From NCBI GenBank assembly GCA_051047955.1, contig JBPGPT010000023.1:62001-126000 (forward strand): a stretch of DNA of 64,000 nucleotides. The letters are read 5' to 3'. Of this stretch, positions 11,983 to 63,797 are shown piece by piece. A model generated the notes under the pieces. That model saw only the letters and a program-made list of their open reading frames with translations, had not been told where the DNA came from and did no database searches. A program made the translations under genes and the position numbers. Source of the stretch: Cystobasidiomycetes sp. EMM_F5 (Eukaryota). Each line of letters opens with the position of its first letter. Position 1 is the first letter of the stretch.

Positions 11983-13899
11983 ATGTCCACACTTCCAGAC
12001 TCTGTATCCAAAGCCATACTCGAGGCTTCAGCTGGCCATCCGCGTCCAGACAAGACCTACGCCTACCAGTATGGCACCGCTGGGTTCAGATTGCGGTGGG
12101 ACCAAACAGAAAAATATTGATGATGGCTCAGTCTGACATTGCGTGAATTATTATACTTTATCAGTGCGGAAAAGCTGGACAGCGTCCTGTTTCGCGTAGG
12201 CTTGCTGGCAGTCCTGCGCTCAAAGAAACAACAAGGCAAGGCAATAGGGGTAATGGTCACCGCGTCACACAACCCAGAACAGGTGAGGAATAGTTTGTGG
12301 ACAGGTATCCAGCGCGTGCTGATAATGCGCGACCGAAGGACAACGGCGTAAAGCTTGTCGACCCGCGCGGGGAAATGCTCGAAGCTAGTTGGGAAGCTTC
12401 GGCTACCCTACTGGCAAATTCGACGACAGACAAGCAACTGCTGGACAGTCTTAATAGTCTCATCAAGTCGCACAAGATCGACCTGTCTCAAAAAGCTCGC
12501 GTCGTTTACGGCCACGATACTCGTCCGTCGTGTCCGGCCCTAGTTGCCAGTTTCAAGGATGGACTCAAAGCGTGCGGTCAAGGTGTGGAGTTGATTGCAG
12601 GAGGTCTACTCACTACGCCCCAGCTGCACTATCTTGTCCGTGCGCATAATGACTATGGTTCCGCAAAGCCATTTGGTGTGCCTACCGAAGAGGGCTACTA
12701 TGACAAACTCGCCAACGCGTTCCTGACTCTTGCAAAGGGTAAAATGTCGCTTTGTCCATTGACGGTTGACTGCGCCAACGGCGTTGGCGGCCCCAAGCTG
12801 CACAAGCTAGTTGAACGTATCGGCAAGGCAAACATTGATATTCGGATAGTCAAGGACGATATCATGACGCCAGGCGGACTCAACAGCCAATGTGGAGCAG
12901 ACTATGTCAAGACTCAGCAACGTGCACCTCCTGGCATGCAACTTTCACGCAACATGCGCTACTGTTCCCTAGACGGTGACGCAGACCGCATCATCTTTTA
13001 CTACCCAGCAGCAGACGGTTCGTTCCGCTTACTGGATGGAGACAAGATTGCTGGCGTCGCAGCAATGTTTCTGATGGATCTGGTCAAGCAAGCGGGTCTC
13101 GATCTGGAAGTGGGAGTGGTGCAGACGGCTTACGCGAACGGTAGCTCTACGGCATATCTCGAGAAGAGTCTCGTAAGGTATCTCTTGGCTGTGCTGCGGA
13201 CGTGTTCACTGACATGTTAAAACGCGATCACTCTCTCCACAGAAAGTACCGGTGGCGTGCGTCGCGACTGGCGTGAAATACTTGCATCACGCCGCCGAAC
13301 GATACGATATTGGCGTCTACTTTGAGGCAAACGGTCACGGAACTGTTTTGTTTGCACCTGAAGTACTACACCAGCTGTCTAATGCTCCTGCAACCTCGCC
13401 CAATCAGCAGATGGCGGTGAACAATTTGAAGGCATTGATCGAACTCATCAATCAGACCGTTGGCGATGCCATGTCGGACTTGTTACTGGTCGAGATCATC
13501 CTCATGCATCGTCAGTGGACTCCGGAGGAATGGGACGCCGCCTACACCGACCTCCCGAACAGACTTGTCAAAGTGACAGTAGCGGACAGGAATAGCTTCA
13601 AGACAAAAGACGCAGAACGCGTTCTAACCAGCCCCCCTGGCCTGCAGAACAAGATTGACGCCACTGTCGCCAAGTACAGCAAGGCGAGAGCTTTCGTACG
13701 TCCTAGCGGTACTGAGGACTGTGTCAGAGTGTACGCCGAAGCTGCTAGCAGGACAGAGGCCGATGGTGAGCGAGCTTTGCTAAGAAGAGCTACGGTAGCT
13801 GATCCGAACCGCAATGACCACGCAGATCTTGCCTTCAGATTGTCTGAGCTAGTCTTTGATGCGGCAGGGTCCGGTCAAGCACCGCAAAGAGTGGCATGA
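11983..13899 (+). CDS. PCM1: Phosphoacetylglucosamine mutase
   Basis: [27 protein letters not shown] and RPSGTED. An in-frame upstream ATG exists at 11908. Confidence 0.95.
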
Positions 13900-14858: not shown

Positions 14859-15048
14859 GACAAGTCATGATACCACCGCCAAGTCGTTCACAGTCTCCAT
14901 GCCGACATAATCAAGAATCAACCGCGTATGTGGAGCCGTCACCGGGCGTGGTACAATCAAGGATTCTACAAGCTATCACAGTCCCATCATACTATACAGA
15001 GAACACCAATCGCCAAGCTCATTGCTCAAAACATTACCTGATCATTGC

Positions 15049-17361
15049 TCAGAACATTACCTGGACTCCGTCATCGTCATCATCTGGGATGGCAGATCCA
15101 GTTCCAATACCAAGAATCTGATTTCGGCGACATCTGTCAATACTCGTCATCCGCAGGGTGCTCCTACCTACCTCGCTGGTGTCCACCTTGTTGCGAGGCT
15201 TGTAGGTGAAACCGACCCATACACCGCGTCCGAAAGGCTCATCAAGCTCCTTGATGGCATCGACATTCTTCTGCTTGTCGAATACCTCCTTGTATTTGCT
15301 GAGCTCAGCCGGGTCCTCGAAGTTGTCAAAGTAGCCGACACTGTGCGTAACAGGCAGCTGTTAGTCACGGCAAACATCTGGCATCTTGGCGTCCACTCAC
15401 TCGACTTCGGAGTCTAGTGCGGGAATGAAGGGCGCAGGAGCTTCGCGTAAAGTGTCCCAAGCAATCGAGCTGTAGAAAGGATGATTTTTAATCTCGTCGA
15501 GCGTGGAGGGTCTTCGACTCTTGTCTGCAATAAGTTGTACGATAGCGGACCAGCCGGCATCGCTGAGATTGAAGATTCTATCTTCGGGACGATCATAATG
15601 TGGCCTTCGGAGCGTCTTGTGCCAGTTTTTCAAATTTGCCCACGTTTCTTCGGGCGTAGCGCCAGAAAAGGGTGGATAACCAGCCAAAAATTCAAATAGG
15701 ATGCAGCCTAGCGACCAGTAGTCTACCGAGAACGAGTAAGGCTGGCCCCGCATGCACTCAATAGACATGTAGTCGGGCGAGCCGACGATTGAATCTGCGG
15801 TTCGCGGTTCCGTCTTACGTATGCTCTTGTAGATGTCCTTCATCTCCTTTGTGCTGCGATAAATGACTTCATTATCCTTGACCTCATCGAGCTATGATAG
15901 CAGAAAGAGTCAGACTGTGCAAGGACGCAAAGGGCATTGCTCTACCTTATTCTTCATTTGCTCGATGCGACCAGGATTCAGATTTCCAGCAGCCAGCCCA
16001 AAGTCGGTAAGTTTGACATGGCCGATCTTGTCGATCAGGAAGTTCTGCATAGCGTGAAACGTCAGATGTGATGATATTTACACACTCAACACGCGCAAGA
16101 CTGACTTCTGGCTTGAGATCACGGTGGATGTAACCTAATTTATGTAGAGCATTGACTGAGCAAAACATTTCCGCAATGTAGAATCGAGCATGCTCCTCCT
16201 TGAGGACACCGGAATTGTTGAGCAGAGTGCGAAAGTCGCCTCCCGGTACGTATTCCTAGCCGAATCATAGCATGTCAGATCAGGAGACCCGAAGGCTACT
16301 ACTTTTGGATGACGTTACCATGGCCAAATAAATGTAGGTAGGATCCTGAAATGCATACAGCAGCGCAACCAGCCACGGTGTCTTTGTCGCAGTAAGGATA
16401 TCGCGTTCAACTAGGACATGCTTGATCTCGTCCATCTTTGCCAGTGTTCGCTTCTTCATCTTCTTCAGGGCGACAACTTCTCCAGAGTCCTTCTTGCGCG
16501 CAAGATAGACTTCCCCATACCCACCCTGGCCAACTTGGGTGATGATGTGAAAGGCGTCCATGCGAAGTTTTGTTCGTCGTTTGCGAAGTAGAACGCGTTC
16601 TCTCCCGGTGTAGGATGACCATTCTGAAGCGTAGGCAGCGCCAGTTACCTAAAACCTCATACGACGCGTAAGCGTTTGCACGAGGCATCCTTTCAAATAC
16701 CTTACACCTCGCTTGGCCGTGTCTTCTTTGAATAGCTGAAGCCGCCGTCTCCGACCGCCCACGTATGAGATAAGGTCAAAGTAGTAGCTACGAGATGAGT
16801 GAATTTAGTAGATTCGCTTGTGAGCGACTCGTCGCACCCACTCGAGGAAGACTGTTGCGTTGTATGTACGTGTTGATGTTAGTCGCCACCAGTCACTCTT
16901 GAGACTTCAAGCGACGACTCACACAGCTGAGCTACATCAGCTTTACGTCGCACATCCTGACTTCTGAGCAGCTCGCTCTCCCAAGCCTTGAATCCCTGTC
17001 CCTTTCTCCAGCTGGCCAGTCCGATGTTTGTCGCATTTGACGAAGTAGCGGCAGCGCTTTCTGCGACTGAGCGAGACTGAGGCGTCTGTGCGAGCAGCTG
17101 TGACATGGTTGGCTCGCTGGACGCTGATCCAGACGCAGACCCGGCTGAAGCTGCGCCATTCTGCTGCTGCTGTTGCTGCATGAGACGCGTCGGAATGGCC
17201 GTCCGCACATTTTCCTTGTCGGCTTCGCGGGCGTAGCTCGATGCAGCTGTCACGCTCGCCGTCTTGTTGGACTGCGCCTTGCCGTCCGTGCTGATATTGT
17301 TGGTCGTGGCTGCTGCTTTGTTGCCTTGCCCAGCAACGAGCAGGCGGGAAGTCGGCTGCAT
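15049..17361 (-). CDS. DBF2: NDR/LATS-family AGC Ser/Thr kinase, Dbf2/Sid2 type
   Basis: [28 protein letters not shown] and C-terminal GFTY. A 10-nt micro-exon (16842-16851) gives FLDYYFD. Start codon approximate. Confidence 0.9.
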
Positions 17362-25385: not shown

Positions 25386-27732
25386 TCAAGGCGATGCAAT
25401 TATTTTTTCAAGTTGCGCTTGGTCTGCGAGTTGAGCTTTGAGCTTGTCGAGCGGTGATTGAGGCTGGGTCGGCTGACGAGCGGGCGGGGGCGGACGGACA
25501 GGTCTTGGGTGCGGAGTCTGGATGTACGAACGGCTAGCGACTGGTCCTATACTATCGAGTCTTAGGTGTGGCGGACGGATCGGAGATGCAGAGAGGGGTT
25601 GAGTTTCGCTACTGGGTGAATGCGCATCGATAATTGTAGACAACGTACTTCCACCCGAGTCTGGCCGATGCATGTCGCTGATGGAATCACCCTCTCCTCC
25701 CTCGTGTATAGCACCGTTGAACCAGTTGCTGCCGCCAACTGACGATCGGTCATCTCCAGAAGAAGCCGACCGGCTGGCGGGGAATGGACGGGCTGATGTA
25801 CGTTTGGCGGCAGCAGCGGAACTTGATCCGAGTACAGGAGTTTGCTGCGGTAGTCCCATCATCATTGACCCAGGTCGTTGCGCAAGCGGAGCAGGCATGA
25901 CGAGGTCAATCCTCGAATACCGAGAGTGCGGAGCCCCTGCTATATGGCTCGTACGGCGCGATCCCTGATGCTGTAGTGGTCCCGCGGTCTGGTGGTTCTG
26001 CCATTGCGATCTATACTGCTGCGACGTCCGCTGGCCAGACGCTTGTCCGTATGAAGAGGCTCTAGCGGGATAGCCTGTGACCGTCTGTGCATATCGAGGC
26101 ACTGACCTGGAACTGCGAGGATGATTTACAATATTTCCAAATTGATCGACAGATTGGCTGCCTTGCTGGGTCGTGGACGCGTAAGTGCCGCCCAAGCGAG
26201 GTAAACTCTGTGCGTCTCGTATGACCAACGATTGACGCTGTGGAGTCGTTGATGCTTGATGAACTGGCGGAGGTGGAGGGGTGTTAGCGCTGAAATCCAT
26301 GAGCGGGGGAGGGGATGCAAAAGGAAGGCCTGGAGGAAGCGAACCAGGTTCTGATACTGGCGAAGTGACAAAGCCTGACGCGTACTGTGGGTCAGTAATG
26401 GTAATATCGCCTCTGTCTTTACCATCCAGATCCGGTGACGACTCGCCGCTTGATTGTAAGCCAGACATGCCACCCGACGGATTGAGTGACGTCGAGCTGG
26501 ATGTATGTTGCGATCTGCTGCTAGGTTGACGTTGAGGCGTAAGACCCGAGGAGAAAGAAGGCATGCGATCGGACGGCAACGATCTTTGCGAGGGATAGAT
26601 TGTGGGTGCATCCAAAAGCGATACGTTGCTCCCCGTTGCGTGCGTCGTAAAGCTGTCGGTATGGGCTAGCGTACTTCGACCCCGCATACTATCCTGATAC
26701 GATTCCGATGCAGGTAGAAGGTGGGCAAGGCTGCCACTTCGCGTCGACGCGGCATCGTAATGGCTGTACGAGGACGCATACTGTAGATTATGGGAGACAC
26801 TGTACAATGAGGGATTGGCGTAGCTCTTCTCCACCATGAGCGAGGGCGGCTCAATCCTCGCCAGAGCAGGATTAAAAGCTGAAGGTGAGTCTGTAAATGC
26901 CGGCTTGTAGGCTATAAAGTCTTCATCGTCATCATTAATGTCGTCGCTTTTGCCTCTGCCGAATCGAGGCCATCCAGAGCCCTTCAAACTGCGACTTTCT
27001 CGACGAGAAAAGTATCGGTATAGCCGATAGGCGACGAATATAGCAACGAGCCCTCCTGCAACAGCAACGGCAACAATCGCTGCGAGAGGAAAGTTGCTGT
27101 TGCCAACGGATGCATTCTGAGCGGTAGAATCGGAATTAGCTACGGGAATCGCTAGAACGGTTGATGATGTTCTGGAAGCTGTGATCAATAGGTCAGTACG
27201 CGAAGAGGATGAGCTTTCTGCACGCTTACTGGTCGTGGTGGATGATGTACTGGTCGTACTGGGACGTATCGAGGAGGTGATGATGACCACAGCGGGAACT
27301 GCATAACAGGTGAATAAGCGAGAAGTTTGCAACTGTCAGAGCCTATTCCTCACCCGATGTGGCTGCGACAGTAGGTCTATTTGATGACGAGGTCCGTGCG
27401 GCAGCAGCAGCAGCAGCGGCGGCGGCAGAGGCGGAAGCAGCAGAAGCGGAAGCGGCGGCAGCAAGCTGTGCAGACTGCTGCTGCTGCTGTTGCTGTTGCT
27501 GTTGTGTATTTTGCTGTTGTTGCTGAGTGTATTGCTGTTGAGTCTGTTGCGATTGTGCCTGTTGTGTGGGGTACTGCTGCTGCGTTGCCACTGGCGAAGG
27601 GCTGTATGTCGTCGGATTTGCTGCTGCTGCTGGCGGAGTAGTATATTGCTGCTGCTGCTGCACCACTGAAGATGGAGACCCTTGCACGAGACTGTTACTC
27701 GCAGCGACCGACGACCTTGAAAGGCTTGCCAT
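25386..27732 (-). CDS. Single-pass membrane protein with Gln/Ala/Ser/Thr-rich N-terminus and long disordered tail
   Basis: TM LAAIVAVAVAGGLVAIFVAY followed by a basic stop-transfer segment. ORFs 27343-27732 and 25386-27332 are joined by an intron. Confidence 0.75.
27398..27662. repeat. Coding trinucleotide repeats (poly-Ala and poly-Gln)
   Basis: Runs of GCA/GCG and TGC/TGT encoding poly-Ala and poly-Gln on the minus strand. Confidence 0.85.
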
Positions 27733-28488
27733 TGCGATTGAGAACTAAATGGATCTTCTTTGTTGATTCTGCGGAGTAGGACCCAGACGACAATGGACGA
27801 CAAGTTGTAAGAATGAAGCAGTCAGTAGTGAGTGCGCGCAGAGTGTTAACGTTGCCCACTCTACCCGTACTCTGCGCTTCTTCCCGTCTTTAAATTTGGC
27901 GGGCTTCACGTCTGCAGCCAGAGTCCAGGCCCCGTCTCGCTCGCTGGCAGAGGCAATGGCGAGCTCTGACAGCGGGCCATGCAGTCTGAGCTGCCAGTCT
28001 GACGAGCAGCGTCGAGTTGCTACGACCTGCACCGCTGTATCGAGCTGTTGACTACTTCAAGCTGCTGCCATACATTTTACTCGAGCTTTGTTTACTTTTT
28101 GCTGGCCAGGCACCCAGCCAACAGGGCATGGCGTGGCATTCCGGGGCATGCCCTGAGAGCGGCCATCACAACGATAAATTACGGGTGCAAGCAATTCGAA
28201 TGCTCGAGGTTGAATACATACTCTGACATTGGAGTATGAATCGTTCCAGTCAAGCAAAGCCAACCTCCGTCCGTCCAGGTATTCGATTCTGGTTTTGCCC
28301 AGCTTAGTAAGCGATCGAATGTCAGTCGCGCATTGACATTCCGCCTTGTTTACCGACGCGTACAGTGCTGTTAAGGCTGACCTTTTTGGCTGCTCAAACT
28401 TGGATACATCCTGACATCTCGATATCAATAAATATACCAGCACTAGCATTGCATTCACACAGCGACACTGCCAGCTACGCGTCACAGC

Positions 28489-41747: not shown

Positions 41748-42786
41748 ATGAACACATTTATAAGCCGCGACAAGGGCAAGCAACCAGCTTTTCAAGGGTC
41801 GACGCTGATTCTAGTGCGCGCAAACGGGATATTTCGCTAGCATTTCAAGAAACTGACGTATGCATGTCCTGCTGGTGATAGCCAATCGTCTCGCTGGCCA
41901 ACGTGGCCCAGCTCGCAGCTGACCTTCTCATCCACACTCTTCAACTCGAACGTATAGGAGCACTATCCGGCCGTAATCATGTCCCGTTGGTTGCGCCGCA
42001 GGATTACGTGCATAAGCAAATCAATGGGCCTTTAGTGAATGCCTTCTCGACGGCCGTAGAAGGTGAGAATGCAGCCATTTATGGGCTGATGTACTGGCCT
42101 GATTCACCCCTCAACAGTCTTTCAATCCAGAGATGGCAAAATCACACTTATACAGCAACGCTCACCCGTTATAAAGGTAAGCTTACAGAGCGTCCGACTG
42201 ATATAGCTTCGCTAATGTAGACGTGTGTAAGTCGAGAAAAGATGCTTTCGTAGCGTCGTTGATTGCGTTCGTGCAACAAGCGCACTTCAGCGGTATCCTC
42301 GTAATGGCGGGTACAGACCCTAGTATACATCGCGACTTCGACAAGTACGCGAATCGGTGCACATGTGGTAATCGTGCTTACATGAACATATTCTACAGCC
42401 CCTCACCCTTCAGATATATCACCTTGAAGGACCATAAACTCGCAACCGGGCTAAAGGCAGTCGCGTCTCGATTCGTAGCACAACCTACGACATCCGCCAA
42501 CATGCCCCTGATCTCGGCTGGCGGCATCACGCGCAGATTATTGTCGGGCTTGGCAGCTAGTATGCAAAACACGCCCGAGATTGAGGTCGCGTGCCTACTC
42601 ATGTTTGTCGTCGAAGGAGACAATCGGCAAGACGCTCATGTCTTAGCTCGCACGGTCTCAAAGACACTTGATGTCAATGTCTCCGAAGACAGTTGGCGTG
42701 AGCCAGTCAGTTGGAAGACTGGCCTGTATGGCACTCAAGTGGAAACCAGCGGTAGTGACAGAGGCGTCCGAGATTTGTACAGTTGA
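41748..42786 (+). CDS. Proteasome assembly chaperone 2 (PAC2/PSMG2-like)
   Basis: STLILPIVSLANVAQLAADLLI, QQRSPV, EGDNRQDA and WREPVSW. Confidence 0.88.
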
Positions 42787-42888
42787 TGCTACAATTTGGT
42801 GATCGGTATGAGGGCATATTTGATAAATGTGCGCCTTGCGTACTCTACATGGGTTTATCTGCATTGTGTTACTTCATACTTCATGCCT

Positions 42889-43935
42889 TCAACTTGGCTT
42901 TGGCGAGACCTTTGCTGCAAGCGCCGGTGAAATCCAGAAGGCTAGTAATGGCATCATCAGTTCTGATGTGCGTGCGATTGGTTTCCAAACTTACTTGGGT
43001 ACCGACGATGCCCAATGTTGTTGATAAGCATCGCCCACGCGAGCATGATTACGCTCGAAGCCGCGATGTCACCCACGTAAAACCATGACAAGTTCGCAAT
43101 CTGCGGAATAGTGATTGCTAGTACGGCTGTAGCTCCACCTGGCGGATGTCTGTTGGAACGCATTCAGCACAAGCCAAAAGAAATTATGCAGAGGAGACTG
43201 TGAACAAACGTGATGTTGAACAATTGCATGACGGCGATAGATATGCTAATAGCTAATGCTGCCGCCTGCCAGAATGGATGTATTGTTAGAACACATCCAC
43301 GCTTTTGTGAACGTATGAACCCACTGCCCAATTGGCCGTCCCGACTGTCCCAACGACAAATCCGTCTATTCTTAGAAAGCCCTTCGTGAGAGCGACGCCG
43401 ATGACAGCGCTAATCGTGTTTCCTAGCACAACGTTTCGAGGTTGAGTGAGAGGAGATGTTGGGGCAGCATAGAGCAGTGTTGCTTCAGCTCCGAATCTGC
43501 GTGGGAATCTTCATTAGCGAAGGTCTACGTGACATCGCCTGATGCCTTTTACTCACGCTCCAATGAGTACTGGAGCACTCCGGCGAAGAAAGGGTGCACT
43601 TCTTGCCATTGTCGCACATAGGGCGACTCCGAAGAAACTTCCAATAAAGGTCAAGAACAAATTGGATGCCTTCTGCGTCCACGGATGTTCGCGGAAGCGT
43701 GCCAGTCGACGTGATGGCCCAGCGTACTTGGGATCGTCGTGCATACTTTGAGGCAGCATTCTCCCTCTTGAGCTAGCATCGTCTTCCTTTTCTCCCTTCT
43801 GTACGCGTGCGGGTCGATATCTGCGTATACAAAGAATGAGTATACATTGGCGAAGGGTGCGAACACTACATTGTACCCAAGGAAGCGCGACGCCGGCCAT
43901 AGAGCCTCGCCAATCGATGGCGGTATATCTCCCAT
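42889..43935 (-). CDS. HPP-family membrane protein
   Basis: SRFLGYR, SPLTQPRNVVLG, HPPGGATA and NNIGHRRYP. Confidence 0.9.
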
Positions 43936-44338: not shown

Positions 44339-44763
44339 CTAGCGACCTCCGCCTGTCAAGACCGGGTCAGCAAAGCGATTATGCGCCTTTCCACCAACAG
44401 GTGATCCTGTCATGCTCACCCTTGATCCACTGAGGCTTTGGCTTTCCTCTTCCTTTGAGATCTTCTCCTCTAGCTTCGACACTCTCGCTCATGTCCCGCT
44501 TGCCCCCACCTGAACAATCACTGCAGTCAGTCGCACGGCACTACACCTGCACGCAGATCAGCTTGCACCGGCACCTTTAATCCATTGTGGCTTCGGCCTT
44601 GCCCTTTCTTCCATGGCATGATTGTCGTTGACTACGCAGCAGATTTGACTCAGCTACCGGACCAGCTAGATGTATACCCTCGACCGCACTGACTTGGTGC
44701 GGGTAGCGGGGTAGCAACGGCCACGGCCACGACGGAAAGCAACAGCAAGGACGCTAGCTTCAT
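44339..44763 (-). CDS. Secreted repeat-peptide precursor (KEP-like), 76 aa, 4 exons
   Basis: Exons 44763-44694, 44631-44575, 44509-44420 and 44352-44339 total 231 nt with three GT-AG introns. Translation: MKLASLLLLSVVAVAVATPLPAPINDNHAMEERARPKPQWIKGGGKRDMSESVEARGEDLKGRGKPKPQWIKGGGR*. Confidence 0.85.
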
Positions 44764-45633
44764 CTTTGCCGAACCTTGCGCTGATAAAAGTATTTCAGTT
44801 CACTGTAGTTAAGGGTGTCGAGACCAGCCTAATCGTAAAGACGAAAGTCAAAGAAGGTTGCCGTACAATGCTTTTTAAACGAGCACATCCTTCGCAAAAG
44901 CAACCGATAACCGACCTACATTGGCAGTAATCATCGGTCTGTTCCACATTTCACCTTCAGCATGCCGTTTCTGGAAGCCACCGCGATCCCATTCCGCCTT
45001 GTCCGCTACCAGGGATCCAAGTTCCGCCCATCACAATAGCATCAGCGCATCCTGACTGAAGTGCCAGAGCTTCCCTGTGAGTAAGACCCTGGTAGTTGCC
45101 TTAATGCAATCAATCTGTCATCTTGTGCCTGAGACGCGCTTGCCTGTTCCGGCAAATGGTAAACAAGCCGCGTAAAGAAACACGAGAATATGTCTGTTGG
45201 TTGTCAGGAGCACAGAACGTGTTTTCAGCCGTTGTTGATGGGACGAACGCCGATGGCTAGCTGGAATGCGCAGCCAGGGCAACCCGTGCATCAGCATATC
45301 AACATGCTTTGCACGGAACTAAGCATCGGAGCCGTATGAAGCGTCAATCTGTAGATGTCCGCTGAACCCGGCAGGTGATAATACTTGAAATTCCAACTGT
45401 TCAGCTTGCGGAGAACAGCAATATTGCAGCAGCCAGGACGAAATACTAAATACTGCATGATACAGAGCTTCTTGTACGGACATGCGTTGAGACGGCGTGT
45501 ATAACATCTTCATGAAACACCGCTGCTCGATGTTCTCGAGCCTTATAGCAGTTTGTCGTAGTATTTGCTTGAAAAGGTAACATTTCGATGGGCATTGCTA
45601 TCTGTACTTTCAGTAATGATAGAGACTGTCGGA

Positions 45634-46780
45634 TCAGTCTTGCTTGACTTGTGCTCCTGGTGTATTGCGAGCCACCCAGTCTCGCAGAGATGTCAATCCT
45701 GGATGAATCTGCTTCAACTGCGAGGTATTCAATCTCGGTAAGCGCTCCGAGCGGTACACTCCGTCACGAGAAAGGCGTGTAGTGTATCAGTCGGAGGAAC
45801 GAACTCTAGAGCATGACTTCAACGTGCACTCACGCATCATGGCTGGTTTCCAGCCTCCTGGTAGTATGTAAACGATGAATGAAGGAATCCATGCTATCCA
45901 GGGCCGTGACCCTTGCACGGCTTCGATTGCATCTTGCACTTGTGCCACTGTGAAGTGGCCAGACCCTACAGAGATGGTCTGATTTTGAAACTCGGCGTCG
46001 TCTGGATGCAACAAGCTCTTTGCGGCAATGACACCAATGTCGGTTGTCGATGTCAGCGGCAACGTCTTCCAATCGACCATAGCGAAGAAGGATCCAAGTG
46101 CAAGGGATCGCACAATCCCTGGTGCAACTGGGAAATTCTCCTGCCGTGGGCATGTGTCAATATGATCGGCAGCTGTAAGACGGATGGCCCACCATGAAAG
46201 CTCCAGGTCGTAGGATAGTATAGGACAGTCCACTGGCTTTCACGTAGTCTTCAATCTGTAAGAGTGTAGGTAGACAGCGAGTTGAGTGTGTAAGAGTGTA
46301 GGTAGACAGTGAGTTGAGTGTCAGTCTGTATACCTACTAGGACGCAGTCCATCTGCTACTGACTGCCAATTTGGATCGCCAGAACGGCACCTCCTGGGTA
46401 TGATCTGCGGCAAAGACACTGGAGAATACGACATGCTTGACATTGTTTCGCTTTGCTGCGTCAACAAATCGCTTTCCCGCCGCGACCTCTGCCTGTTCGC
46501 CGGTATTTGGGTCGGTCATGAAGAATGCTGCATCGCACTCGTACATTGCATGGTCGAGCTCCTCTCTGCTGCGTTGAGAATCGCTGGATAGGTCTGCCCG
46601 GTACGCATTGCAGCTCTTTCGCAGCAGTTTGATGCTCGACGATGACGACGGGTTGCGAGTGATGAAGCGTATCACTTTTGGCGTGTCCTTGTCCCTCAAC
46701 AGGGCCTGCACGACGGCTCCTCCTTGTTTCCCTGTCGCGCCTGCGACGAGGATGACTTGTTCAGGATATCTTCTGGGCAT
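45634..46780 (-). CDS. NmrA-like NAD(P)-binding protein
   Basis: ILVAGATGKQGGAVV, VKHVVFSSV and VPFWRSK; multi-exon. Confidence 0.9.
46257..46320. repeat. 32-bp tandem duplication inside an NmrA intron
   Basis: tgtaagagtgtaggtagacag(c/t)gagttgagtg twice, one mismatch. Confidence 0.95.
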
Positions 46781-47073
46781 AACTCTATAGACGAGGTTGT
46801 GGTAATTCCAACCGGGCTATCAATCCGATGTGCCAGTAAGTTGCTCTGACGGTCAGACTGTATGGGGATCGGAACGAGTTTAATACTTGTGATTTATACT
46901 GCAATGCATCCGTTACCCAAGCACCCTTTGAAGTGTTCCTGCAATTGCAAAGTCTCTTTACATTCTCGTTACCCACGTGACTTCTCGATCACCGTGGGAC
47001 CCCGTCATCGTTCCAAAGATGTCTTCAAATTGAAGCTGTCCACCTTTCTGCGTATTGCGCAGACAGCTCAAAG

Positions 47074-53166: not shown

Positions 53167-54534
53167 TCAGTGAAGACGACGCGTGTCCCATGGGAGATAG
53201 CCAGGAAAGACCGAAATTCCGTCCGAAGGGCAGTACTCCAGCAGATCACGAAGTTCAGGGTTGCTTGTAAAATACGGGTGTACTCTCATGAAAGGGTTTC
53301 GTGCTCGACGTTTCGCCAGCAAAACGCCATGACAGCCGTAGATGTCCTTTTGATAGGGAATAAGACCGTGTTCTCGCTCGCCGACGTACGACGACCCGTC
53401 TTCGTCCGAGTCGTCGATGCCTATGTATGTGAACGTCTCCAGAGGCCACCTGACAGCGTTTCGAAAGACGTCGGTGAAGCGAGAACGCTTCATGCCAAAG
53501 CCTACCACCGTTATCCGTGAAGGATACCTGCCGGTGAGTCTGCGAAGTACATTTGTCAGAGGGGCCAGTACATGGGTTGACGAGGAGGTGACATACTCCT
53601 TGAAGCGACATAAACTGAAAACGAGGTTCTGGTACGAATCCATGGCATACATTTCGGTCGTTGCGCGCATGAACATCGACTGACCCGCCTCCGGGGTGTC
53701 AGTATGACTGACGTCACCTTGAGACGATCGCTTAGGTATTTCAAACTGTCTGTACAGATCTAGGGCTCGAGCAACGCGAAAGTACGAGGTGGCTTCCGCT
53801 TCGGATGCTTGTATTCGGGTCTGCCCACCAGAAAAGACGAGCAAACTCTGTTGATCTCTGACTGCAAGTTCAACAGCTTTGATGATATGTCTGATAAAGG
53901 TCTTGACGCTGTTTTGTTGACCCTTCTGCAGTATCCATTGACTGGAATCATCTGCTTCTGAGCGTAAGCGACCTTGCCAGACGGAATGGCCGGGGACGAG
54001 TATCATATGATTGAGATCGTCGGGTATAGATGATGCTTTTCCTCCGCTGCCGCTGACCAGGCCAGTATTCTGTTGCGGTAGGGGCATTGTTGCGCGTATG
54101 CTGAAGGGAAGTCGGTCCCGCTCGCCTTTTAGCGGATGTTCGTGAAGATAGAACTTGACGTTGTACAAGAGACTGACTGAAAGAATGGTTAAAAGGAGGA
54201 GAACTGCTAGGTTTGTCGTTCTGGACCGAGCTGTGAGATTCTTTGGACGAAGAAAGCCTAGCGGCGAGCGAAGAAGAAGGTATGCCATCAATCCGCGCAG
54301 AGATCGCGGCCTCCCTCCCTCTGCCGCAAGAATGGCGTGAAGATCTTCCGCGCCTTCGGCATCAATACCTCCATAGCTTGCGCTCCTCTGCTTGCCTTTG
54401 GAGGAAGACCACGATCTGCCTGACGGATTCCGTTTCTTTGTGAGGGTCACTGAAGAGACTGCGTTTGTGGAAGTGGAAGCGTGGGGTTCTTTGTGCTGCT
54501 CAGCAGAGTACATTGGAAGACTTTGCGTGACCAT
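53167..54534 (-). CDS. DUF218/YdcF-like type II membrane protein
   Basis: One TM, then LVPGHSVW, FSGGQTR, DSYQNLVFS and YPSRITVV; in-frame intron 53540-53596. Confidence 0.82.
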   Translation of the reverse strand: MVTQSLPMYSAEQHKEPHASTSTNAVSSVTLTKKRNPSGRSWSSSKGKQRSASYGGIDAEGAEDLHAILAAEGGRPRSLRGLMAYLLLRSPLGFLRPKNLTARSRTTNLAVLLLLTILSVSLLYNVKFYLHEHPLKGERDRLPFSIRATMPLPQQNTGLVSGSGGKASSIPDDLNHMILVPGHSVWQGRLRSEADDSSQWILQKGQQNSVKTFIRHIIKAVELAVRDQQSLLVFSGGQTRIQASEAEATSYFRVARALDLYRQFEIPKRSSQGDVSHTDTPEAGQSMFMRATTEMYAMDSYQNLVFSLCRFKEYVTSSSTHVLAPLTNVLRRLTGRYPSRITVVGFGMKRSRFTDVFRNAVRWPLETFTYIGIDDSDEDGSSYVGEREHGLIPYQKDIYGCHGVLLAKRRARNPFMRVHPYFTSNPELRDLLEYCPSDGISVFPGYLPWDTRRLH

Positions 54535-54742
54535 TGTGTCGCCAGACTTGCACGAATAATGCAGGAACTAGGGACAGGTCGTCTGCGATGGCGGCTATGG
54601 CAACTGAAGGTAGCTCTTTGCAGGACCAGGCATGTCATTGCAGCATATAATGGGTCATGATTTGGTTGGCGCCAAAGTGGACAGTGCTTGCGATATTCCA
54701 GGTCATTGCAGCTCAGCCTCCCGCCAAAAGATACGCAAGACC

Positions 54743-61480: not shown

Positions 61481-63797
61481 TTATGCATCAGTCATCTCCG
61501 AATCTCGAACCTCTAATTCTCCTGTCGTCCGTGTTGGGACAGCTTGACCTTCACTGATCGGCCCTGCGACCTGTACGAATGTGACGCTGTTAGATGACGT
61601 CGATCAGTAGCAAAGGGGCATACTAACCTCCAATGCCTTTCCAGCGAAATACCGCACATCCGCGTCCTCATCGTCCTTGAGCTTGACAAGCCCCGGAATG
61701 AGTCGCTCTTTCACAATCGAAGCTCCTTCAGGCTTGCTCGCGAGCACCGTTGAGAGTACTTCGAATGCTTTCGCTACATTAAAGCGGATATTTGGAATTG
61801 GATCGCCAGCCAACGTTGTGATGGCATCGAGTACGGACGGCTGTTGAGGTGATGTAGGTGATGCAAGGGTAGGCTGGGAAGTGATGACATGTGTGTCCAT
61901 AGCTGGTGCCATTGTCTACGACAAAGAGCGATTAAGTAAAGTTGAACCAGCAATGCTCGCAAGATACTCACAGTAATGGCAAAGACGGTCGTGAGGCGGT
62001 GAAGATAGTTTTCGTCGTTCGCTTGAGCGATAACGTGTGGAAGGAGGGCAGACGCCGCCCACTCGGCCCCAAACACTTCTGTCAACTTGCGTAGATTGAC
62101 AGTCGCGGCCTCTCTGATGGAGAAGACAGGGTCGGCAAGCCAGCTCATGCAGAGATTGCCCAGCTTCTCATCGAAGAATGCCACACCGAGCTGTGTGGCG
62201 AGGAGGGGAATATATTCGATGATGGCCTGACGGACTCTCCACTGTTTGTCCTCCGCAAGGGTGATGACGGCCGGCAACAATGCTTGTGATAACCGTTCGA
62301 TGCCAATGACTGCATTTACTTGTTCGAGCTTGGAAATAATATTTAGTCTAACTTCGGGGAATTCATCCTTAAGCAGTTGCAGGAAGAGCGGTAAGAGGTG
62401 TTCGATTGTATTGTCCTTTCCGAGCTGCGGAGCCAGTCCGCTTATCTGCGCCCCAAGCGCAGCCCGTACATGTTGTGAAGAGTCAGAGGCCAAGTCGCGC
62501 ACGCATGGCATGAGACGAGCTAGGATTGTTTCAGCATTGATCAGCTTGGCGAAACCTGTATTAAGAAAACATAATGTTAGGCTTGCCACAAAGTATTCAG
62601 TCAAGTTTACGTACCTGGAATTTGGCCAGCAGCAGCGGTTCGAACTTCTGCTTCCTGATCCTTGAGCAAATGGACGTAGGCGTTCACGAGCTCCTCTTTG
62701 ACTATCTCCTCGCCCGCGGCCTCGGACAGCTGGTACCGCCACCTGTCAGACTATGCGTAAGTAACATGTAACAAGAAAACATACCTTGACGAAATTATCT
62801 GCAACCATATAGCGGACCCTCCACGACTTGTCTTGTACCATACTCTTCATTGTCGAACCGAGGTACATTTTGCATTCGCCAGAGTCCATCGCGCTGGCAA
62901 TGGCGATAAGAGAATCTACAGTCAACAGACGCACAGAATCTTGGTCGTCTGATGAAAGCTTCCGGAACACTGGCACTAGATCGCGTATCAGGGTCTCTTT
63001 GCCGAGTTGTCGAGACAAGCCGCCCATTTCCTTTGCGGCCGACCGACGGACCATAGGCGTATCATCCTGGCATAGAGCCGAAAACATCTTTACCATCTCC
63101 TCGCGCAAGGTAGTCACATTCGCCTCAGTCAGACTAGATGTAGGGGCAGTTGCAGAGAGAGCGGAAGTTGAGGGGTCACCGGAGGACACGGCCGAGTCGG
63201 ATGCCTGCGATGTGTTTATACGCCGGTATACGGATGCGTAGAGCGCCGTCGCCGAGCTTCGTGATGTAAACCACTCGCCCGTGCTAAGTCGACGTAGTAG
63301 CGGGAGGTACGCTTCAACAATCTGCGAAGGCGTGAGGACGGCGGCAACCTTGTTGATCGATTCAGCGGCCTGGGTGTACCAACAGTGCCCAATCAGCGAC
63401 ATTCCGTAATCTAGCCTCATAATGATGAAGGTACCTTTTCCCGTACGAGCGTTTCTTCGACCGCTGCAAGGTTCTCCAGCGGCCCTAGCAGCAGATGGGC
63501 ATGCGTTGGACCACCAATGTACTCTGCAAAGTTGCCCAATTCTTCCGCGAGCGCCAGCAGGACCTCGTCCTCGTCGTCGAGACTATCTTGGAGGAACGGC
63601 ACCAGTTCATCGCGCGACCTTTCAGGACCCAAGGCCAGGGCTATCGTGCTCAGCCTCCGTATTGCATTGAGGCGCAGCACCACGTCCTCGCTCTTGAGCT
63701 CGTCAATCAGGATAGCGAGCGGGTGCAGCGAGTTTGGGTCTGGCTGTTGACCGACGCCGCCTTCGTGCATGCCCTGCGAAGTCCCGGCCTGCTGCAT
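61481..63797 (-). CDS. TPD3: Protein phosphatase 2A scaffold (A) subunit
   Basis: [40 protein letters not shown] repeats DKSWRVRY and DKQWRVR, and [12 protein letters not shown]. Confidence 0.97.

Follow-up and report, generated by a model that had tools for sequence, protein, structure and literature searches.

The closest described systems to the gene reported here are secreted fungal precursors that release short peptides, foremost the repeat proteins that Kex2 processes (KEPs). A survey of 1345 strains counted 7878 KEPs, 2560 of them without a homologue (PMC7329392), and for the majority of the peptides derived from KEPs no function is known (PMC9769878). In the screen of Le Marquer et al., 2019 (PMC6339444), a KEP has a signal peptide by SignalP and no transmembrane segment, is cut at KR or RR (or KK) into at least four fragments, has at least three repeated fragments, and has repeats that cover 15% or more of its length. 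Peptides such as pyro-QYKAPSW, from KEP 490115, come from those Coprinopsis cinerea KEPs that carry STE13 motifs (PMC9769878; PMC6339444), and many confirmed KEP peptides of this species are pyroglutamated, which the authors regarded as the first indication that Ste13 is active in a basidiomycete (PMC9769878). Another basidiomycete system is Qsp1 of Cryptococcus neoformans, an 11-residue signal that is secreted as a pro-peptide, matured extracellularly and re-imported, and that in this yeast can govern mating, virulence and the morphology of colonies (PMC7537855). Here, we describe a putative precursor of this general kind, encoded on the minus strand at 44339-44763 of a 64,000-nucleotide (nt) stretch of contig JBPGPT010000023.1 (assembly GCA_051047955.1, Cystobasidiomycetes sp. 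EMM_F5, positions 62,001 to 126,000), which we call the window. Two copies of one short peptide core in this product differ in their DNA only at silent sites.

Gene model and codon-level evidence

Cutting the window at the proposed splice sites gives a four-exon frame of 231 nt, or 76 codons, which runs from an ATG at 44763 to a TAG at 44341-44339 without an internal stop codon and has GT..AG borders at all three introns (Table 1). The product begins with M-K and 15 hydrophobic residues ending in A-V-A, followed by T-P-L-P-A-P, a short acidic stretch ending in EER, a first peptide unit (A-R-PKPQWIKGGG) and KR; the second half consists of a 16-residue acidic spacer ending in KGR, a second unit (G-K-PKPQWIKGGG), a lone R and the stop. 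Each module thus has a 16-residue acidic spacer ending in Arg (net charge -2), a 12-residue cationic unit (net charge +3), and then KR or R-stop. The KR at residues 46-47 is the one dibasic site in the product, and on their N-terminal side both units have a single Arg or Lys without a dibasic pair. A previous reading of the locus from its sequence only (the sequence-only reading) had proposed a hidden four-exon gene with this two-repeat layout, and every element that it described is found in the minus-strand sequence. This includes its claim that a phase 1 intron lies within the first Gly codon after WIK in both repeats: cut at the proposed sites, both WIK/G junctions are in phase 1, with the intron after the first base of that codon (G/GT in one unit and G/GC in the other).

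The evidence that carries the gene model comes from comparing the two units, which start at residues 34 and 64 and so have a period of exactly 30 residues. Across the invariant 10-codon spliced core, 8 of 30 nt differ between the copies, all of them at synonymous third positions, and no residue changes. The probability that eight random differences on 30 sites would all fall on the nine degenerate third positions is 1.5e-6, and of 2,000,000 simulated mutation sets none left the core peptide intact. The core is under protein-level purifying selection in both copies. Outside it, the two preceding residues change conservatively between units (A/G and R/K), and the spacers, compared by eye, have no obvious similarity, sharing a length of 16, a net charge of -2 and a terminal Arg. 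Between introns 2 and 3 the identity is 56%, the level of shuffled controls (mean 51%, maximum 58%). The conserved core with synonymous codon changes and diverged spacers that the sequence-only reading had noticed is therefore borne out. Because the silent sites are saturated, the duplication would be old, with selection having kept exactly ten residues in both copies. Since the GGG residues can be read only after the proposed splices, the same pattern supports junctions 2 and 3, and is the strongest support for them.

We also looked for comparable repeats across the window with a six-frame scan for peptide 8-mers repeated within 400 nt, using 30 block-shuffled windows as controls. The scan found four repeated pairs, and the shuffled windows contained none. 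PKPQWIKG is the only one of the four with diverged DNA (5 of 24 nt differ); the other three, in which 1 of 24 nt differs, stem from a single tandem DNA repeat of 32 nt at 46257-46321. That repeat is a near-perfect duplication (2.0 copies, 96% matches) between two open reading frame (ORF) blocks of an NmrA-like gene, and is perhaps intronic.

The 30-codon period, the 90-nt length of exon 3 and the phase 1 introns flanking it at homologous positions also fit the earlier proposal of an exon-module duplication, in that such a layout is what a 90-nt exon, duplicated in tandem together with its intron, would leave behind. It follows from the same arithmetic that skipping of exon 3 is predicted to leave the frame intact and yield a precursor with one unit.

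The start of the frame resembles a signal peptide. We applied a crude rule (a basic residue near the start, 15 uncharged residues in a row whose mean hydropathy is 2.3 or more, and small residues at -3 and -1) to the 1161 open stretches of 23 codons in the window that begin with ATG, and the start of exon 1 was the only one to pass. Its h-region has a mean Kyte-Doolittle hydropathy of 2.76, and no later hydrophobic stretch is apparent by eye.

Staged enumeration of frame-compatible GT..AG pairs gave 16 candidates for intron 1, 14 for intron 2 and 47 for intron 3, and the proposed sites are the most consensus-like in each. For intron 1, CAA/GTCAGT is the most consensus-like donor of the 16 candidates. 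The intron 2 candidates draw on two donors only (44574 and 44568), and 44510 is the sole acceptor with a branch motif at a usable distance. For intron 3, the proposed donor-acceptor pair yields GGGR-stop. Read without splicing, the frame gives G-A-G-A-S-stop after the WIK of unit 1, and 13 residues and a stop after the WIK of unit 2. Two further introns in the window could be placed by the continuity of Pfam profiles, a predicted 70-nt intron in the AGM1 gene (13173-13242) and a predicted 53-nt intron in an oxysterol-binding-protein gene (31699-31647), both with a GTAAGG donor and a CAG acceptor; at these lengths, short introns appear to be normal in this genome.

Two other assignments of the region were considered and rejected. 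The exons could have been the 5' part of the downstream HPP-family gene; the Pfam-matched exons of that gene lie more than 550 nt past the TAG, and introns in this genome are about 50-70 nt. Plus-strand ORFs over the locus have no Pfam match, and only the minus strand agrees with the codon pattern. The codon-level evidence is best read as a coding gene, very probably one for a secreted repeat-peptide precursor, and we consider it likely, with good confidence, that this unannotated four-exon gene is real.

Table 1. Positions of the putative precursor gene, its parts and its neighbours in the window (a slash marks an exon-intron border)
Feature	Position	Strand	Length (nt)	Description
NmrA-like gene	45790-46816	-		upstream of the peptide gene, same strand; Pfam
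TATA-like TTTAAAAA, candidate	44872..44879	-		109-116 nt 5' of the ATG; spotted by eye
Exon 1	44694..44763	-	70	ATG with A at -3; ends in phase 1
Exon 1 content	44713-44763	-		signal-peptide-like residues 1-17 ending A-V-A; then T-P-L-P-A-P
Intron 1	44632..44693	-	62	donor CAA/GTCAGT; branch-like CTGAG 18 nt from the 3' end; acceptor GCGTAG
Exon 2	44575..44631	-	57	end of pro-region 1 (..NDNHAMEER), unit 1 through WIK, first base of Gly codon
Unit 1	start 44602; core start 44596	-		within exon 2
Intron 2	44510..44574	-	65	donor AAG/GTGCCG; branch CTGAC 17 nt from acceptor GTTCAG
Exon 3	44420..44509	-	90	phase 1 at both ends; exactly one 30-codon period
Exon 3 content	KR at 44501-44496	-		GG of unit 1; KR; 16-residue acidic spacer ending KGR; unit 2 through WIK, plus G
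Unit 2	start 44447; core start 44441	-		within exon 3
Intron 3	44353..44419	-	67	donor AGG/GTGAGC; branch CTGAC 14 nt from acceptor TGACAG (first AG past the branch)
Exon 4, coding part	44339..44352	-	14	completes GGG of unit 2; Arg 44344-44342; TAG 44341-44339
HPP-family membrane protein gene	TM_HPP exons 42960-43163, 43289-43510	-		directly downstream; probable first exon near 43556-43765

Comparison with known peptide systems and search for relatives

Set against the KEP thresholds, the single KR divides the product into two fragments (versus at least four) and there are two repeats (versus at least three), while the two 12-residue units make up 24 of 76 residues, about 32% (versus at least 15%). 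Some alpha-pheromone precursors also lie below the KEP repeat threshold (PMC6339444). The sequence-only reading had seen here the architecture of Kex2/Kex1-processed repeat precursors; the repeats and the one KR agree with this, whereas the N-terminal sites are monobasic and the product falls short on two of the four operational criteria of the KEP screen (PMC6339444). With the basidiomycete KEPs that carry a Ste13 signature the product shares identical tandem cores at basic sites, X-Pro before Gln, a short Trp-containing peptide, a host in the Basidiomycota and the absence of a link to mating; its start is signal-peptide-like. It differs from KEPs in its two repeats, its one dibasic site and monobasic N-terminal sites, in X-Pro not directly following KR, in the phase 1 intron within each repeat, and in a sequence unlike that of any KEP in the supplement text searched. 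An orphan sequence is typical of the class, in which 2560 of 7878 members stand alone (PMC7329392).

The product is also like Qsp1 in being a small, putatively secreted pro-peptide of similar size class from a similar host group, and unlike it in having two cores; we found no sequence relation between them. Qsp1 contains only one core; the serine protease Pqp1 matures it extracellularly, and Opt1 takes it back into the cell. Rep1 of Ustilago maydis is likewise a secreted basidiomycete repeat protein and is cut by Kex2 (PMC7329392). The product described here differs from it in having two very short cationic units. Rep1 is far larger, and its products, at least eight, are hydrophobic wall-bound peptides that form amyloid-like fibrils.

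The ascomycete alpha-factor precursors (S. cerevisiae MFalpha1 and Aspergillus PpgA) share the prepro build and the logic of Kex2, Kex1 and Ste13 processing, and low repeat numbers occur among them. Unlike them, the product comes from another phylum, and its spacer after KR does not consist of XA/XP dipeptides: KR is followed by D-M-S-E, and the R/K-P and K-P dipeptides come 17 residues later. Known alpha-factor cores are of the W-C...G-Q..C or WHWLQL type, and the peptide does not resemble them. As for the host, alpha-factor would call for an ascomycete, and the neighbouring protein that we placed on a tree (see below) groups with basidiomycetes. In its proposed manner of working the product is like a KEP or an alpha-factor-type precursor. 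The comparison with alpha-factor in the sequence-only reading is nonetheless overstated: the host is a basidiomycete, and alpha-factor-type precursors are not mating pheromones in basidiomycetes (PMC6339444). Our best reading is that the precursor is KEP-like or Qsp1-like, and that an alpha-type mating pheromone is unlikely.

The R-P-K-P-Q that opens unit 1 equals the first five residues of substance P (RPKPQQFFGLM), and unit 2 has K for R. This likeness, to which the sequence-only reading had pointed, stands for the five N-terminal residues of unit 1 only. The signature that defines tachykinins is a C-terminal FXGLM-amide (PMC6880623), and this is absent: the units end in WIKGGG, without FXGLM-amide or FXGXR-amide. 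Five residues are a weak match, and we treat it as coincidence.

Searches for relatives were negative. In the protein collection searched, no entry of 29-93 residues shares three 5-residue words with a 53-residue frame around exon 3, and none of 94-2000 residues scored against that frame. A phmmer search with the 31 residues of exon 3 against 1,835,955,588 representative proteins gave no matches, with a query so short that only close relatives could be found, and the ESM Atlas held no usable match. In metagenome contigs, the back-translated pattern P-K-P-Q-W-I-K-G matched three loci, once each and in unrelated contexts (two in stop-broken frames and one inside an unrelated long ORF of a contig with 43.5% GC), which we read as chance. 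The core strings were not found in the literature searched, nor in the supplement text searched for the KEP surveys PMC6339444 (89,120 characters) and PMC7329392 (732,332 characters), which is possibly incomplete. The protein collection does not contain this gene even from the genome that the window belongs to, which suggests that tiny intron-split genes of this kind are not being called.

Proposed processing and competing explanations

In the processing scheme that we propose, the signal peptide (residues 1-17) would direct the product to the secretory pathway and be removed after A-V-A, and the remaining 59 residues would form two tandem 30-residue modules, each made of a spacer, a cationic unit, and one or two basic residues at the end. 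Late in the secretory pathway, a kexin-type protease would cut after K46-R47, and a Kex1-type carboxypeptidase would then trim KR from the first half and the final R from the second, leaving two products that end in WIKGGG; such trimming would explain the lone Arg at the end of the frame. The N-terminus could be made in one of three ways. A monobasic cut after Arg33 and Arg63 would release a 12-mer. A cut after Arg35 and Lys65, in a common R-x-[R/K] context, would release the exactly invariant 10-mer. Ste13-type removal of the R/K-P and K-P dipeptides with cyclisation of the Gln would leave a 7-mer. We slightly favour the second, because its product would be exactly the invariant part and both sites lie in R-x-[R/K]. 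C-terminal amidation of the Gly-extended peptide was considered and rejected, as fungi are not known to have an amidating enzyme.

The identity of every core residue in both copies, with drifting flanks, is the pattern of a ligand for a specific partner, and for this reason we commit to an extracellular self-signal. Signalling would be the most likely function, with a cationic defence peptide as the second option. A precursor with a signal peptide, kexin/Kex1-type processing and an extracellular self-signal of the KEP or Qsp1 kind is the best explanation that we can offer, and one in which we place about even confidence; splicing, secretion, cleavage and function are all steps that we infer. 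The processing scheme is plausible but half canonical.

Several points weigh against this explanation. There is a single canonical dibasic site, and release at the N-terminus rests on an unnamed protease: cleavage by Kex2 behind E-R, G-R or G-K would be unexpected, so that another protease has to be assumed, such as a yapsin-like enzyme or, as in the case of Qsp1, an extracellular one. If the precursor is cut after Arg33 or Arg63, the X-Pro dipeptides are offset from the new N-terminus by one residue, and the 7-mer would therefore need an extra trimming step. The dipeptidyl trimming and pyroglutamate formation suggested in the sequence-only reading have a basidiomycete precedent in the Coprinopsis KEPs with STE13 motifs (PMC9769878), but do not fit the register of this cut. 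All three splice junctions are models. The branch motif of intron 1 is near-consensus (CTGAG), with no strict CTRAY in that intron; the intron 2 donor GTGCCG is weak, with a good exon side and no G at +5; and a second intron 2 donor 6 nt downstream (44568) would insert Gly-Ala in unit 1. The signal-peptide-like start was judged by a crude rule. Lastly, no relative was found among proteins and metagenome contigs, a search that did not extend to fungal genome DNA, and we count this as weak evidence.

An unlikely alternative, which accepts the gene, is that its product stays uncut and acts whole, as a secreted and disordered mini-protein of 59 residues, duplicated internally, for example in a cell wall or effector-like role. 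The codon evidence for a real gene applies equally to such a protein, and the presence of one dibasic site only, together with the KEP thresholds that the product does not reach (PMC6339444), would be as expected. It accounts less well for where selection has acted: this is limited to the 10-residue core and its basic flanks, and the spacers have fully diverged, which is the pattern expected if the excised pieces are what matters. Basic residues also directly follow both units, including a terminal Arg without another obvious purpose.

The precursor and its processing could also be as we propose, with the released cationic Pro/Lys/Trp peptide being antimicrobial or directed at a host, and the acidic spacers serving as neutralising pro-regions. 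The charges of +3 per unit and -2 per spacer suit this idea, an acidic pro-piece with a cationic peptide is typical of antimicrobial precursors, and the start of the peptide resembles insect proline-rich peptides. We nonetheless hold it to be rather improbable: 7-12 residues with a GGG tail would be very short and weakly amphipathic for activity on membranes, and exact conservation of the core fits receptor recognition better.

That there is no gene, and that the DNA separating the NmrA-like and HPP genes is intergenic, with a frame that arose by chance or is the remnant of a decayed one, would sit well with the failure to find a homologue, with the weak intron 2 donor, and with the way in which a tiny coding sequence has been assembled from chosen splice sites. 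We doubt it, however, because neutral decay cannot produce a core in which all eight of eight differences are synonymous and the third positions are saturated, and because the signal-peptide-like start, unique among the 1161 stretches, is on the strand of the core and can be linked to it without a break in the frame.

An alpha-factor-type mating pheromone precursor is very improbable. The signal-peptide-like start, the repeated short peptides, the KR site and the X-Pro dipeptides would suit one, and ascomycete alpha-pheromone precursors may have as few as one repeat (PMC6339444), but the genome is that of a basidiomycete, a group that mates via a-type lipopeptide pheromones only (PMC6339444, PMC9769878), and no mating-type genes were seen among the scanned ORFs of the window. 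Least probable of all is a precursor of a dikaritin-type cyclic RiPP, a peptide made on ribosomes and modified after translation (of the ustiloxin, phomopsin or victorin kind), for which a signal-peptide-like start and repeated cores adjoining basic sites would speak, but whose core should have a Tyr that is missing here and a KR on either side, where KR or R is found on the C-terminal side only, and whose tailoring genes (DUF3328/UstYa, tyrosinase, P450 or other) are absent from the 205 ORF translations scanned among these housekeeping neighbours. DUF3328 neighbours accompany just 6.1% of basidiomycete KEPs (PMC7329392), which also speaks against it.

Neighbourhood, host lineage and significance

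Pfam scans covered 205 ORF translations across the window (34, 43, 15 and 113, a few ORFs being counted twice), among them those of at least 130 residues over 36-54.6 kb (34), those of 60-129 residues over 36.5-53 kb (113) and those of at least 150 residues in the rest (43). The window is a dense run of housekeeping genes, with matches to exopolyphosphatase-like DHHA2, Cmc1, PAC2, F-box, DnaJ, EF-1 beta, the PP2A scaffold, AGM1, Sir2 and others; these scans revealed neither a mating-type gene nor one for DUF3328/UstYa, tyrosinase or P450. The GC content is 52%, and the genes are densely packed without visible repeats, which is presumably unlike a rust genome.

The last exon of the HPP gene (minus strand, gene at 42960-43765) overlaps an opposite-strand frame at 42759-43085 (plus strand), which seems to be the end of the gene for PAC2, a proteasome assembly chaperone; the two genes appear to be convergent and to overlap by about 100 nt. 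Elsewhere in the window, a 23-nt tandem duplication (15019-15063; 2.0 copies, 95% matches) adjoins a protein kinase gene fragment (15400-15891, minus strand). GCA/CTG triplet-type repeats at 27401-27550 lie inside long minus-strand ORFs without a Pfam match (25389-27335 and 27339-27821), and probably encode a low-complexity region rich in poly-Gln/Ala.

We used a 466-residue single-exon ORF (53170-54567, minus strand) to place the host. Relatives of its product are labelled 'DUF218 domain-containing', yet Pfam scored nothing in it at E of at most 0.01. Among the best 120 of 264 related proteins (E of at most 1e-10), its best named relatives are from Rhodotorula, Rhodosporidiobolus and Sporobolomyces (44-46% identity), followed by Agaricomycetes, and one further protein is 63% identical. 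In a quick single-gene maximum-likelihood tree of 29 rows picked from the 120 to cover subphyla, the ORF and the 63%-identical protein group together (SH-aLRT 100), and the pair stands beside Microbotryomycetes with weak support (SH-aLRT 80). Judged from this gene, the host is a basidiomycete, probably of or near Pucciniomycotina and near Microbotryomycetes, and from a poorly sampled lineage. An origin in Pezizomycotina, also considered, is rejected on the strength of these relatives.

The sequence of the locus is new, the kind of fungal gene an ordinary one, and taken alone it would be one more orphan in a class of thousands. Its appeal lies in its having escaped annotation, in its build from a cassette exon, and in its coming from an under-sampled basidiomycete. 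The locus also illustrates cleanly how tiny genes split by introns can be revealed, in the absence of RNA data, by internal repeats that have diverged at synonymous positions only.

A bolder form of the self-signal explanation, which we regard as a long shot, is that the locus encodes a new self-signalling peptide, of the quorum or development type, of an under-sampled basidiomycete lineage, and is built from a symmetric 90-nt cassette exon. If this is true, gain, loss or skipping of the exon would alter the number of identical peptides per transcript with the frame intact, a splice-level control of dose that is not described for fungal peptide precursors in the literature consulted. If the gene itself is real, standard annotation has missed a secreted-peptide gene in a lineage whose nearest named relatives are about 45% identical in a neighbouring protein, and short secreted peptides are among the least charted of fungal signals.

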